Assembly (NCBI RefSeq): GCF_001677475.2
Contig: NZ_CP015229.1
DNA: 64,000 bases
Source of the DNA: Escherichia coli
GTDB lineage: Bacteria > Pseudomonadota > Gammaproteobacteria > Enterobacterales > Enterobacteriaceae
Reading direction: 5' to 3' (one strand)
Numbering within the stretch: position 1 is the stretch's first letter; each line of letters begins with the position of its first letter. The position numbers were made by a program. Below, piece after piece: positions 1 to 6,000 of this stretch.

Positions 1-3000
1 CGTCCGTCACGCGGGGCTTTCAGTTCGCTGTCATCGATATCTGCGGCAATGCGCCGTTCAGTGGCTTGTGCCGCTTCGACGCGGGTTTGCGCCTGAATGA
101 TATTGGTACGTGCCGCTTCTATAGCCGCTTTAGAGGCTGAAACCTGGGCTTTCGCCGATTCCAGCGCAGCTCGGGCGCTCTCAGCGGCAGCGCGGTCGTC
201 ATCCAGCTGTTGCGCAGAAATAGCCCCACGATGGGCGAGCGAGCGGGAACGCGTATGACGTTTGGCAACGGAGTCCAGTTCGGCCTGTCGTTGATTGACC
301 AATGACTGCGCGGCACGAGTTTCACTTTGCCGCTGTTCCAGCAAAGCCTGCGCGGCGGCAACGGCACTTTGCGCCTCTTTGATTTGCGCGATGGCTTCCA
401 GTCGCTGCTCCTGCAACACGCGAGTATCCATCTTCGCCAGCACTTCACCTTCGCGAACAAACTGGCCTTCTTTCACCAGAATGGTGTCGATACGCCCGGC
501 AATTTTGCTGGCGATATCCACTTCCGTCGCTTCAATGCGCCCATTACTGACGGCAAAGCCTTCCGGCACACCTGCCGGGCGCAACAGCCACCACGCCACG
601 ATAGCGGCCACCGCCAGTAACCCGACAACCCACCACGCCAGATGGCGCTTACTCTTATCCATAATCGACCCGCCATAATCCCTGTAAACAAACGACGCGT
701 GTTACAACTGCCGCCGAACGACGTTCAGCGGATTCTTCCATCCGGGATAAGAAGGAAACGGCAAATACGACCAGCGCGCAGAGCATTGAGCGCCAATGGG
801 GAAGGCTTAGTGAAAACGGGTAGTAATGTTGTCATCATCAGCATTCCTGGCCGTAAATGAAACACGCATACTCATAAGTGTGATCTATAAAACTGGCTGA
901 CAAAACGGTATCCATCCTGTTGGATAGCGTTTCACGCCTGTTCAGTTGCAGAAACAGAGCATTCCTTTTTACGTTTTATCAACAGTCTCAACCAGATAGT
1001 AACATTAATATTCATGTTGTCTATGGTTCAGAGCTGTAACATTGTGCGCCTTCTAATCAAAGGCATAAGTCCATTTTTGTTTTTTTCATGCTGGTAAGAC
1101 TTCCAGGGAGTGGTTATCTCAGGCCCCGCACCAGGGTTAATTTGGCAATTATGCATGCTGAACATTCTTCCAGCATGTTTACTGTCACGGGCGTTAAGAC
1201 CTAAAACTGTCCCCGTTTCACCTATACGTTCTCTTCCACCATTACCGTTATGTGCAACAACTTGATTTATACCTAACATTTGTGAGCATGCTAATAGTGC
1301 TTCAAGTTTAGGTCTGTAATCTGTCGAAACAGAAAAATAACGATTAAAGGATCGACAAGAGATAGCCCGGCTAGTTTTAAACTTCTTACCATTAATGATG
1401 GCATGATGCTTCTTATTAATAATTACCGCTAATTCGACCGGATCGAGAGCATTGGTCATTTCATCAATAGAGACAGTTATCGGCCCTATAATGTAACGTT
1501 CTCGCTGCCCATCGAAAGTTATCCCATGATGATTTGCCATTATTTTGTATTTGGGGTCATAGAAACATACAGGATAATCTTTTATCCCAGCGTAGGTATC
1601 CTCATCAAGTGGTTTCATACGCGTGAAGTTCTGCATATAGTTACCATTGCAATTCGTTTCATGATTTCCAGCTAATACATGAACATTTTCATTGATACTC
1701 ATTATGCGTTTTAACAAATCGATGATAAATTGATCGCCACAGATATTACTAAATCGATCGCCGGTTTGGTCGCCAAGAAACGTACATGGCGTCACAGCGT
1801 CTTTATTAATAACCAAATAAGGCTGAAGACTTTCTAAAACAATATCTCTTCTGTTCAGTATACTGATTATTGTATTAACATTAGTGTCAAGTTGCTCATT
1901 AAAGTTCTCCCTTAGCAATACGTTGAGAACTTCATCTTCTATATTAAGCAACTGGCTAAGGAAATTTTCTCCTTCAGCCATGATTCCCAAATGTCCCGTT
2001 GCGAAAAGCGCGTACAAAACTGCACCAACTGAGCCATCGGTATCGCCAAAATAGGTTGGTCTGGTACTTGTGGGATCAACAGGTGAACAATTGGAGAAAT
2101 AGGTTCTGTCAGCGAACTGGGGTTTTATTATTGTTTCGAATTTAATATCAAATACATTGTATTGCGATATTTTCCAGTTCCAGATGGGTTTGTACGACTC
2201 AGTAATTGCAACATCATTAGCATCATCATTTACTGTCATATTATTAAGTAAATAAACAATGCTGCACCAATTAATATCGGTATCATCAAGAGGGCAACCG
2301 TAATTTTTACTATTAATTGTCACAATAAACTGATAACAGTTATTCCTACGTAGAATATGAGCACGCATGCCCGATAGCATACTATATTTTTCTGAATGAT
2401 TCGTTTGTATGGTAAATGATATTTTGTCATCTTGAATAGATTGTTGAAAACGTTCTATTTGCCAATCATCAATTTTTTCCACAACTTCACCGAGCATTGT
2501 CCTGGCAATACTTGATATATCATCACCTACACCATTTGCAATATACCCAAACAGTTCTTTAGTGAAGTTGGTAACATGCTCTTGCACCATATCATTTGTT
2601 GCGATTGTCGTTGTACTGCCGTTAGTGCCTGCCACAGTTCCAATTTTCATCTTTTACCTCATATTATTCACCGCGAGGAATACATAGTTAACATTTTATC
2701 TTATGACATACACCTCATGTTCGATGGAAAAATAATTATATTTTGCACAAATCATTCAGCCTTAAAGCATAATATGAAATTTCTTATCTCATAGCAGAGA
2801 AAGTCCCTAAAGATTGTAGAGGCGTCATCAGAACATACCTCTACAATCGATTAAGAAAACCTATGAAATACTGGCGGTATTAAAAAGATATACCACCGAA
2901 TTCATGGAGTTTTAATGAGATTGAAAACAACTAAGCCCTGAGGAATAAATTATTTTATTATTTTTATCACGTGCTTCCTTCAGGGAATTTAGCCCCATAA

Positions 3001-6000
3001 TACCATTATCAAATTGTTGATTCTGATCTACCCCGGGCCCATGATGCCCATATTTTTGTCTAATGTATTTGCTGGGGTCTTCACCTTTGAGTGTCTCCCC
3101 ACATATGAAGATACGTTCACGTGCTGGTCTGAAATCAGTAGTGTTATCAAAATAATTAGCATATACAGGTGTGGGTTTCAAAGTATTGCTTCGGATTAGA
3201 TGGAATAGAGGATCATCCATGTGTTCTTTATGTTTTTTATTAAAAATATTGGCTAATTCTTCAGGATCAGTAGGATTTTTCATCTGATTAAATGGAACCT
3301 GCAAAGCACCGAGACAATAACATTTTTTTTCTTCATCTCTTATTATTCCGTGATGACTGGTTAAAACTTGCCTTTCTGAGTCATAATTACAAACATCGAG
3401 CGTTTTAATTAAGTTATACGTATCACCGGCAGAGAGTTTATGATTTGCTAATCGTGCAGTATAGTTACCATTAAAATTGATTTCATGATTTCCAGCCAGA
3501 ACGACGACATTTTTATTAATACGGCTATCTTTATTACCCTCCATATTTCGCATAGAATTTAGCAAAGTAAGGATATATTTATCACCAAAAATAGTACTAA
3601 ATCTATCGCCTGTATGATCCCCAAGGAAGATGCAAGGGGTTATCGCATCGTCCTTTAAAAAAACATGTTGATGCAACTCATTCAAGATCATGTCTCTCGT
3701 ATTTAATAAATCGTAGAGCACTTTATTATTTTTATGTTTGTATGCAAATGAAGCCATGTCTTCGTGTTTTAATAATTCACATAATAAACTCCAACCCTTT
3801 TCCCTGATGCCTATATGCCCTGAAACGAGCAATGCATAAAGTACAGCGCCTACTCTTCCATCTGTATCGCCAAAATAAGCCGTGTTGGCATTTTGTGGGT
3901 TAATCACACCACACTGTTTATAAAAGTCTATTTTTGAAAACACAGATTTAACATAGCTATCAAACTTTTCCTTAGTAAACGTCTCTTTAGAGACATCCCA
4001 ACGCCAGTCAGGTTTGAAATTACCACTAAGAAGAGTAAAGAAATTTTCAGGTATGATAGAAAGCCCATCAACTTTATAAATTACATCTGATTTATCTCCA
4101 GAGGAATTAATAAAATAATAACCGCCCTTACACTCAACAGTAACGGTAATGGGAGACGATAATTTTAACACATGGTTATTGTCTGGTATAATTGTAAAGA
4201 TAAACGTGTCAGTAGTATTGTCGGCGAATCTATTATATTCTTGAATATCTATAGAAGGTTCACTATTGTAAAACCATACTTTCTCCATCTGGTGACTACG
4301 ATCATTTACCTTCCAGTGACCATGTTGCAGGAAATAGATGATATGCAGGCCAAAATCGTTATCTATTTGCGAATGTTTATTCAGCTTATCAATTTCAACT
4401 ATCTTTGCACGATGTTTTTTATCAACCTTGCCATGGTGTTGATGACTGTTAACTTTATCTGAATGCTTATCTTGATGGCTTGAAGAGATGTTTATAATCT
4501 GATTGTGAATTGCTTTCATAAATAACCTGTGATATTTTTGACTTGTTTGTAACAAAATAAATAATACATGTCCGAAAGACATATTTACGACGATATAAAG
4601 CAATAATGCGTATATGCTCGCTGATTTTAAGCACCGAGACCATCCGGTCTTTTACCAAATAATGAAAAAGAACCCCTCCCTGGAAGATAATTGTAAGAAA
4701 CAACAGAATAAGAATTAATCTTAGGATAAATATTTATTTACCATGGCCTTTTGAACGCTGAAAAGTAGCGCTCTGCAAAGTAAACCCCGCTATAGTAATG
4801 CTATGCATTTGTCTTTAATGATATCTCGTCATTATATTAACAGGCTGAAATTATCATTAATGCACATTTAAATATTAGCAGGGATACCTGAGGAGTTTAA
4901 AGTGAACATATATATCGGGTGGCTTTTCAAATTAATCCCTTTGATTATGGGCTTAATTTGTATCGCGTTAGGTGGCTTTGTGCTGGAAAGTTCAGGGCAA
5001 AGTGAGTATTTCGTCGCGGGTCATGTGCTGATTTCTCTGGCAGCCATATGCCTGGCATTATTCACTACCGCATTTATTATCATTTCGCAGCTCACGCGCG
5101 GCGTTAATACGTTTTACAATACATTGTTCCCCATTATTGGCTATGCGGGGTCAATTATCACCATGATATGGGGTTGGGCACTGTTAGCAGGCAATGATGT
5201 GATGGCAGACGAGTTTGTCGCCGGCCATGTTATTTTCGGCGTTGGTATGATTGCCGCCTGCGTTTCGACAGTTGCAGCGTCATCCGGTCACTTTCTGCTC
5301 ATTCCCAAAAATGCAGCGGGGAGCAAGAGCGACGGAACACCGGTACAGGCCTATTCTTCATTAATCGGTAACAGCCTCATTGCCGTTCCCGTTTTACTCA
5401 CCCTGCTCGGTTTCATTTGGTCTATTACGCTGTTACGTAGTACCGACATAACTCCGCATTATGTCGCCGGTCACGTATTGCTTGGGTTAACCGCAATCTG
5501 TGCCTGTCTAATTGGCCTTGTTGCCACAATCGTCCATCAAACACGTAATACGTTCTCATCCAAAGAGCACTGGCTGTGGTGTTATTGGGTTATTATTCTC
5601 GGCTCAATCACGGTGCTGCAGGGCATATACGTGTTAGTCAGCTCCGATGCAAGCGCCCGACTGGCTCCCGGCATTATCCTCATTTGCCTCGGAATGATCT
5701 GTTACAGCATATTCTCAAAAGTCTGGCTACTGGCACTGGTCTGGAGACGTACCTGTTCGTTAGCCAACAGAATACCGATGATTCCCGTCTTCACCTGCCT
5801 GTTTTGCCTTTTCCTGGCATCGTTTCTTGCAGAAATGGCGCAGACCGACATAGGGTATTTTATTCCTTCGCGGGTTCTGGTCGGTTTGGGAGCGGTATGC
5901 TTTACGTTGTTCTCAATCGTTTCAATATTAGAAGCGGGTTCTGCTAAAAAATAATTGCAACGTACCGGATAAAACCAGCGTTGATTATTTGCGTAACGCT

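Follow-up and report, generated by a model that had tools for sequence, protein, structure and literature searches.

The yhiJ-yhiL locus

Within a 64,000-nucleotide stretch of the Escherichia coli chromosome (NCBI RefSeq assembly GCF_001677475.2, contig NZ_CP015229.1), referred to here as the window, the minus strand carries the end of yhiI followed by yhiY (about 725-838), yhiJ and yhiL, beyond which yhiM lies on the plus strand (4902-5954). The present report concerns yhiJ and yhiL, two tandem genes of the DUF4049 family for which a sequence-only reading of the same DNA had suggested a phosphoesterase-type fold. The yhiJ coding sequence (1028-2650, minus strand; 540 amino acids (aa)) is an open reading frame (ORF) with a Pfam DUF4049 match and RefSeq homologues named yhiJ, and its ATG follows a Shine-Dalgarno sequence (GAGG) located 6 nt upstream. 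The longest yhiL ORF extends over 2912-4603 (563 aa) from the furthest TTG, which is devoid of a Shine-Dalgarno sequence, while a candidate ATG at 4519 is preceded by a weak AGG. Since the RefSeq annotation of the yhiL homologue is 535 aa in length, matching the ATG at 4519, and since AGG precedes that ATG and no such element precedes the TTG, the intact yhiL coding sequence most likely occupies 2912-4519 (minus strand; 535 aa), encoding an N-terminal DUF6860 and a C-terminal DUF4049 domain. Of the span of 1028-4603 originally given for the pair, the yhiJ end therefore stands, while 4603 marks the furthest TTG and 4519 is the likely yhiL start instead.

YhiJ and YhiL are paralogues that share 35% identity over 375 aa (E 3e-75), their first approximately 130 residues having diverged past BLAST detection. 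Both are full-length matches to DUF4049 (PF13258, cut-off 25 bits; YhiJ E 2e-176, 586 bits; YhiL E 3.4e-196, 651 bits). In YhiJ an N-terminal domain of approximately 190 aa precedes the C-terminal DUF4049 metallophosphatase domain, the catalytic part of which (aa 194-503; 1142-2071, minus strand) is predicted to form a beta-sandwich resembling that of the phosphoprotein phosphatases (PPP). In YhiL the DUF6860 domain (PF21661, E 1.1e-69) is encoded by 4028-4402 (minus strand). Sequence searches returned no PDB relative for the N-terminal domain of either protein, and neither contains a signal peptide or transmembrane segment (maximum Kyte-Doolittle values of 1.53 for YhiJ and 1.14 for YhiL). 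The guanine plus cytosine (GC) content of positions 1001-5000 is 34-40% as against 47-60% in the flanks, and the locus is carried by about 79% of 5,426 complete E. coli genomes and absent from about 21%.

Motifs and catalytic residues

The sequence-only reading had drawn attention to GDTDG, GDxTGDRF and LAGNHE, in the order of metallophosphoesterase motifs I-III, and translation confirmed the presence, order and positions of all three in both proteins. In YhiJ, on the minus strand as are all of the following, motif I is GDTDG (D203, D205; 2033-2047), an invariant G-D-x-D-G which follows strand E23-25 of the structure model described below, motif II is GDQTGDRF (1751-1774; D294, the predicted bridging ligand, with D298 and R299) and motif III is LAGNHE (1658-1675; N329, H330). 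Beyond these, both proteins contain HHG, (Y/F)RP and H(N/H)G. The YhiJ HHG (motif IV; H374; 1523-1531) is the counterpart of HGG in PP1 and of H231 in WipB, a Legionella pneumophila effector, while distant relatives and WipB have HGH(D/N)G at the place of HNG (motif V; H467; 1244-1252). Between them lies R446-P447 (1310-1315), invariant in the orthologues and 11 homologues, in which R446 is the probable second phosphate-binding arginine, a role assigned from motif order in PPP enzymes. Translation places the YhiL equivalents at 3857-3871 (GDTDG), 3599-3622 (GDHTGDRF), 3482-3499 (LAGNHE), 3347-3355 (HHG), 3125-3130 (R-P) and 3038-3046 (motif V, HHG).

A six-frame translation of the whole 64 kb (about 128,000 residues) revealed that the ordered pattern GD.[DH]G...GD.{2,3}DR...GNH[DE] is confined to the yhiJ and yhiL ORFs, the single motifs occurring three, two and two times, respectively. 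Chance resemblance was rejected on the basis that the ordered pattern is unique to these two ORFs in the window.

Across YhiJ and YhiL orthologues D203, D205, D294, D298, R299, N329, H330, H374, R446, P447 and H467 (YhiJ numbering) are invariant. In an alignment of 23 homologues with a mean column identity of 15%, G202, D203, D205, G206, G293, D294, D298, R299, G328 and H330 are invariant, while N329, H374, R446, P447 and H467 are at least 90% conserved, so that the motif residues retain the conservation expected of them in the sequence-only reading. H374 and H467 are invariant in the orthologues and in 11 diverse homologues, and N329 finds an exception in the metagenomic protein P0123, which carries GDHE. 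The order of elements is common to all homologues: GDxDG, some 80-90 aa, GDxxxDR(F/L)S, some 30-45 aa and GNH(D/E), followed downstream by H(N/H)G, (F/Y/W)RP, (HG)H(N/D)G and LN(A/S)R. Motif I is of the D-x-D type, with D205 an invariant Asp at the position of the canonical D-x-H His in all 23 homologues; its carboxylate could ligate metal, although it is not the canonical residue. The motif II spacer comprises three residues, one above canon, as in WipB GDELVDR.

Homologues and the link to metallophosphatases

A six-sequence YhiJ/YhiL profile, searched against 1.84 billion representative proteins, retrieved just three full-length clusters, namely YhiL, YhiJ and P0123 (720 aa; E 8.5e-53), followed by about eleven distant proteins at E 5e-5 to 4e-4. 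Word-indexed searches returned almost solely Escherichia and Shigella sequences together with further members of the distant clade, among them a Citrobacter portucalensis protein and a plasmid-encoded protein of Pandoraea oxalativorans; yhiJ and yhiL themselves are almost confined to Escherichia.

The YhiJ/YhiL profile aligns with that of the distant clade at an hhalign probability of 99.8% (E 2.2e-27) over 258 columns spanning motifs I-V. Three distant proteins score above the gathering thresholds of both DUF4049 and Metallophos (PF00149; 21.5 bits), namely P0187 (29.7 and 30.5 bits, respectively), P0192 (31.7 and 25.4) and P0197 (26.0 and 23.4), while P0284, P0285 and P0288 exceed the Metallophos cut-off alone. 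The joint profile matches the WipB crystal structure (PDB 5nny) across the whole domain (E 1.6e-8), the alignment pairing WipB GDLHA, GDELVDR, NH, HAG and HGHD with the DUF4049 motifs; YhiJ motif II aligns with GDELVDR in the absence of gaps and HHG with WipB 'HAGI'. The weaker matches of the joint profile (Mre11/SbcD, PP2A, ApaH and RLPH2) are all metallophosphoesterases.

Structure model

An AlphaFold2 model of YhiJ 177-540, built from the 23 diverse sequences, attained a mean predicted local distance difference test (pLDDT) score of 81.7 and a predicted template modelling score of 0.83, while six close sequences as input yielded an unusable model (pLDDT 51.7). Every motif directly follows a beta-strand in the model, as in the metallophosphatase fold, H374 being located after strand E194-197 and H467 after E286-289, and the predicted fold is a beta-alpha-beta-alpha-beta sandwich. 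Between motifs I and II the model contains a helical hairpin (aa 225-278; 1817-1978, minus strand), with helices H49-71 and H78-102 corresponding to aa 225-247 and 254-278. Foldseek comparison of the model returned WipB (E 3e-6), WipA (1.4e-5) and ApaH (1e-4). Structure prediction, the means of checking the fold that the sequence-only reading had proposed, thus returned a beta-sandwich metallophosphatase model with WipB and WipA as its nearest neighbours.

Evolution of the locus

The same tandem pair is present in E. albertii, located between yhiN and yhiY, and the duplication therefore predates the split of the two species. Orthologue identity is 57% for YhiJ and 52% for YhiL, compared to 97% for the flanking yhiN and pitA. 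Nonsynonymous divergence (dN) between E. coli and E. albertii amounts to 0.29 for yhiJ and 0.37 for yhiL, as against 0.014-0.017 for the flanks, and the dN/dS ratio (omega) to 0.28 and 0.38, as against about 0.04-0.05. Synonymous divergence (dS) is about 1.0 for yhiJ and yhiL, two to three times that of yhiN and pitA (0.3-0.4), which points to ancient allelic lineages, to replacement of the genes by transfer or to an elevated mutation rate in DNA this rich in AT. Divergence between E. coli alleles reaches 13% for YhiJ and 18% for YhiL. For one divergent E. coli allele pair, omega was 0.17 for yhiJ (0.12 for its catalytic domain), 0.57 for yhiL and 0.06 for yhiM, and all motifs are intact in both alleles of both genes. 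Selection, to judge from these substitution patterns, clearly preserves yhiJ and is purifying in its catalytic domain; yhiL, by the same measure, is only weakly constrained or diversifying.

As the sequence-only reading had it, yhiL is intact in the window, where it forms a complete 535-aa ORF, and its mention of a K-12 pseudogene agrees with the MG1655 annotation of the gene as 'frameshifted'. The lesion is a 1-bp deletion which shortens an A8 homopolymer run at codon 397 (3323-3330, minus strand) to A7 in K-12; this tract may be prone to slippage and act as an on/off site, rather than having suffered a single isolated lesion. The locus as a whole is dispensable, as indicated by an insertion sequence (IS) IS1-mediated deletion and by a 20-kb deletion in an evolved strain. 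In the genome with the IS1-mediated deletion (NZ_CM185152.1) the yhiJ-yhiL-yhiM block is replaced by IS1 adjoining a TnsA-like gene beside yhiN, and the site is therefore a rearrangement hotspot.

Some database proteins are chimeric. P0010 (430 aa), from E. albertii, fuses the N-terminal half of YhiL to the C-terminal half of YhiJ. The E. coli protein P0004 (555 aa) is apparently of the same kind, containing DUF6860, the YhiL N-terminal domain, and aligning with YhiJ at 84% identity over 76% of the query length. In P0011 there are duplicated internal segments. Such proteins are indicative of either recombination within the tandem pair or errors of assembly.

Discussion

The conservation of the motif residues, the hhalign and Metallophos link, the WipB match and the structure model together support the phosphoesterase-type fold put forward in the sequence-only reading, and we regard metallophosphatase fold and homology as very probable. 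Homology, fold and conservation of catalytic elements are established here at the level of sequence comparison and prediction. The C-terminal domain of YhiJ and YhiL is very probably a diverged calcineurin-like (PPP-type) binuclear metallophosphatase whose closest solved relatives are WipA and WipB, and by analogy with these the two proteins are probably active phosphomonoesterases. That the substrate is a protein rather than a nucleotide or small molecule is a proposal to which we would give slightly less than an even chance.

The mechanism that we envisage follows the paradigm of PP1, lambda phosphatase and WipA/WipB and is given in YhiJ numbering. In each paralogue the catalytic domain is joined to an N-terminal domain specific to Escherichia, which is DUF6860 in YhiL and has diverged in YhiJ. 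Metal 1 would be bound by D203 and D205, the latter in place of the canonical His, D294 would bridge the two metals, and N329, H374 and H467 would ligate the second. R299 and R446 would position the phosphate, a metal-bound water would attack it, and protonation of the leaving group would fall to H330, paired with D298. WipB, with the motifs GDLHA, GDELVDR and NHG, is inactivated by the mutations D118A, R123A and H151A (PMC5572681), and the YhiJ counterparts of these three residues are D294, R299 and H330. The likeliest substrates would be phosphoproteins (phosphotyrosine or phosphoserine/phosphothreonine), with the N-terminal domain and the hairpin possibly setting target choice. Lacking signal peptides and membrane segments, the two proteins would be expected to act in the cytoplasm unless they are exported by a type III system.

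Both proteins differ from their nearest solved relatives in several respects. Their identity to the Dot/Icm effectors WipA (PDB 5n6x) and WipB is only 11-16%, motif I is D-x-D as opposed to D-x-H, motif III is GNHE where WipB has SNHG, and the extra domain is N-terminal rather than C-terminal as in the Wip proteins. Escherichia is not known to have a Dot/Icm system. The three-residue motif II spacer is common to YhiJ/YhiL and WipB, and WipA has a hairpin analogous to that of YhiJ between motifs I and II (PMC5454105). The PPP phosphatases of eukaryotic type and the PPP-like enzymes of bacteria (PP1, PP5, calcineurin, lambda phosphatase, the Shewanella cold-active protein tyrosine phosphatase (PTPase) and RLPH2) gave no significant direct sequence match, and YhiJ/YhiL differ from them by the D-x-D motif, the additional motif II residue, the hairpin of approximately 55 residues and the unique N-terminal domain. 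The nearest relatives act on phosphotyrosine (WipA, the Shewanella PTPase and RLPH2) or phosphoserine/threonine (WipB).

A number of points weigh against the proposed assignment. YhiJ scores 15.7 bits (E 0.021) against PF00149, below the gathering threshold, and YhiL produces no match; against WipA_Phos (PF21663) YhiJ reaches 15.2 bits where 27 are required (E 0.015), and neither YhiJ nor the YhiJ/YhiL-only profile found anything meaningful among PDB sequences. The sequence link is consequently transitive, running through the distant clade. The structure model derives from a shallow alignment (23 sequences) with the C-terminal 40 residues unmodelled, and was judged by its scores, the placement of the motifs after strands and the Foldseek matches. 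Catalysis is predicted by analogy, and the clade-wide Asp stands in place of a His that is essential in WipA, the motif I mutant H32A of which is inactive (PMC5454105), such that metal content or activity could differ or have been lost. In addition, broken copies of yhiL are frequent, as shown by the frameshift in K-12 and by truncated clusters, its omega of about 0.57 within E. coli would fit weak constraint, and the nucleotide hydrolase ApaH is structurally almost as close as WipB, which leaves the substrate class wide. YhiJ is also below the cut-off of the NCBIfam model T4SS_Wip (NF043030; 17.7 versus 300 bits, E 0.0015), and the two proteins, lying below the Wip cut-offs, are therefore relatives rather than members of the Wip family.

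The proximity of ApaH, the symmetrical diadenosine tetraphosphate hydrolase of E. coli and Shigella, bears upon the possibility that the same fold serves a nucleotide or small-molecule substrate, as an ApaH-like hydrolase of dinucleoside polyphosphates (NpnN) or capped RNA or as a phosphodiesterase. We consider this unlikely. ApaH shows no sequence-family match to YhiJ/YhiL, has GDxHG in place of GDxDG, contains neither the hairpin nor the N-terminal domain, and is encoded by a core gene rather than an AT-rich accessory one. Less likely again is an effector role, present or relic, in which YhiJ and YhiL would be translocated, for example by the type III systems LEE (locus of enterocyte effacement) or ETT2 (E. 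coli type III secretion system 2), and would dephosphorylate host proteins in the manner of WipA and WipB in Legionella. The closest solved relatives are type IV effectors, and three of the six distant relatives examined by contig occur in type III settings, the other three being located on a plasmid or among housekeeping genes. The three in type III settings are encoded on metagenomic contigs. P0188 (L006, 7374-8870) directly follows FHIPEP, type III secretion ATPase and SepQ genes; at its N-terminus it has a sequence similar to the translocation motif WEK(I/M)xxFF, and it matches Sif and SopD weakly. P0187 (L005, 8001-9341) has as neighbours a CesT chaperone, a kinase of eukaryotic type (Pkinase) and a giant OTU protein, and P0195 (L012, 7151-9043) is flanked by two CesT genes and the gene for an ElaD/SseL-like deubiquitinase. 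A scan of GTDB genomes for the P0188-like subclade yielded no confirmed relative. The AT-richness of the two genes (34-40% GC), their reported binding by H-NS, their fast evolution (52-57% aa identity to E. albertii versus 97% in the flanks) and their polar, S/T/N/I-rich N-termini are likewise in keeping with an effector origin. However, yhiY, yhiI and yhiM are the neighbours of yhiJ and yhiL and no chaperone or secretion gene adjoins them, comparisons with K-12 among the strains, which is not known to have a working injectisome, show yhiJ to be intact and subject to purifying selection (omega 0.16-0.17), and no evidence of translocation was encountered in the searched literature. Given that WipA and WipB are type IV effectors, the wider clade looks effector-rich, while an effector role for YhiJ and YhiL themselves is speculative. 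It is conceivable, if rather improbable, that DUF4049 and its rare metagenomic relatives constitute an unrecognised clade of PPP-like effector phosphatases (D-x-D, GDxxxDR) used by type III systems much as Legionella employs the Wip proteins with its type IV system; YhiJ and YhiL would then, with a similarly small likelihood, form its Escherichia branch, as relic or active effectors or as conflict proteins acting on phosphoproteins of hosts or competitors.

A yet more doubtful alternative regards the locus as horizontally acquired, silenced DNA in slow decay, with inactive products or pseudo-enzymes devoid of current function. The K-12 frameshift, the many truncated clusters (e.g. P0198, P0199 and P0230), the deletion of the entire locus through IS1 in a single genome, its lack in about a fifth (21%) of complete genomes, the elevated omega of yhiL, the reported H-NS binding and the non-canonical motif I would all fit such decay. 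Against it stand the catalytic residues, invariant across alleles up to 18% apart and across E. albertii orthologues at 52-57% identity, the omega of yhiJ, which is well below 1 both overall and in the catalytic domain, and the age of the tandem pair, which is older than the split from E. albertii. There is, finally, one published proposal for YhiJ, the sole functional suggestion in the searched literature, by which it would be a myo-inositol:oxygen oxidoreductase (MIOX). MIOX is an all-helical HD-domain di-iron enzyme, and the proposal is contradicted by the predicted beta-sandwich metallophosphatase fold of YhiJ; YhiJ, moreover, has no match to the MIOX Pfam family at E up to 1. The proposal (Orth and Palsson 2012) concerned a candidate picked by BLASTp and cites a failure of the yhiJ knockout of the Keio collection to grow on myo-inositol, on which the wild type reached an optical density at 600 nm of 0.017 (PMC3423039); this growth is marginal, and complementation is not mentioned in the text searched. 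On the grounds of the missing family match and the conflicting fold a MIOX identity was rejected, and we consider it extremely improbable. A known role in defence or phage biology is likewise unsupported, as neither protein matched PADLOC-DB, searched for known anti-phage defence at E up to 1, or PHROGs.

As PPP-like metallophosphatases, YhiJ and YhiL are new, diverged additions to a well-known superfamily of enzymes rather than a novel type of system. In databases they are full-length members of Pfam DUF4049 and of the NCBI 'YhiJ/YhiL family protein', and the names in use ('DUF4049 domain-containing' or 'YhiJ/YhiL family') carry no function; DUF4049 or PF13258 is mentioned nowhere in the searched literature. 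For an uncharacterised K-12 'y-gene' and a family that has so far been just a DUF label, the assignment would offer a concrete chemistry, catalytic residues to mutate and a rationale for phosphoprotein substrates. The invariant D-x-D motif I may furthermore be viewed as a natural experiment on metal selectivity in the superfamily, and the link to the Wip proteins together with the type III-embedded relatives suggests a wider, undescribed family of effector phosphatases.

Regulatory regions and neighbouring DNA

The yhiL-yhiJ intergenic region (2651-2911, minus strand) would contain a yhiJ promoter of its own, as a genomic SELEX (systematic evolution of ligands by exponential enrichment) table for K-12 assigns a separate sigma-70 promoter to each of the two genes and carries the mark HNS for both (PMC3946193). 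The divergent yhiL/yhiM promoter region (4520-4901; GC 0.34) is reported as H-NS-bound in the same table, and the yhiL gene and the yhiL/yhiM spacer have been described as AT-rich 'promoter islands' (PMC3661553). The literature counts yhiJ and yhiL among possible SOS genes, induced weakly and late, and credits yhiL with a 'potential SOS box'. A LexA-box-like site, TTGTAAGAAACAACAG, with one mismatch, is located at 4691-4706 in this spacer, upstream of yhiL. A scan of the whole window for CTGT-N8-ACAG with one mismatch allowed gave 27 matches where 19.4 were expected, which is chance level, as was the outcome of the promoter and terminator scan.

Between yhiM and yhiN, which lie approximately 300 bp apart in K-12, the window holds some 32 kb of extra DNA (5955-38400). 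This island ends beside yhiN in a Tn7-like transposition module composed of TnsD/TniQ (32273-33844; Pfam), presumed TnsC (33869-35314) and TnsB (35311-37437), both after the annotation of a matching genome, and a TnsA-like protein (37424-38278; Pfam). Its cargo includes a type II CBASS (cyclic oligonucleotide-based anti-phage signalling system) operon (19402-26890) encoding a SAVED-domain effector (19402-20949), a SMODS cyclic-nucleotide synthase (20955-22100), a ThiF/E1-like Cap2 (22097-23932) and a JAB Cap3 (26417-26890), with an IS66 transposase (24780-26372) between cap2 and cap3. The segment at 6444-18401, which a few E. coli genomes share at 99.8% identity, comprises an adhesin locus (tib) of the type found in enterotoxigenic E. 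coli, with its neighbours and an IS3 pseudogene. It encodes two small tyrosine recombinases/invertases (7835-8386 and 9376-10038), CaiF/GrlA-like and LuxR-type regulators (10396-11483), the heptosyltransferase (11805-13025) and TibA autotransporter (13018-16740) of the tib locus, and an EAL-domain protein (17592-18401).

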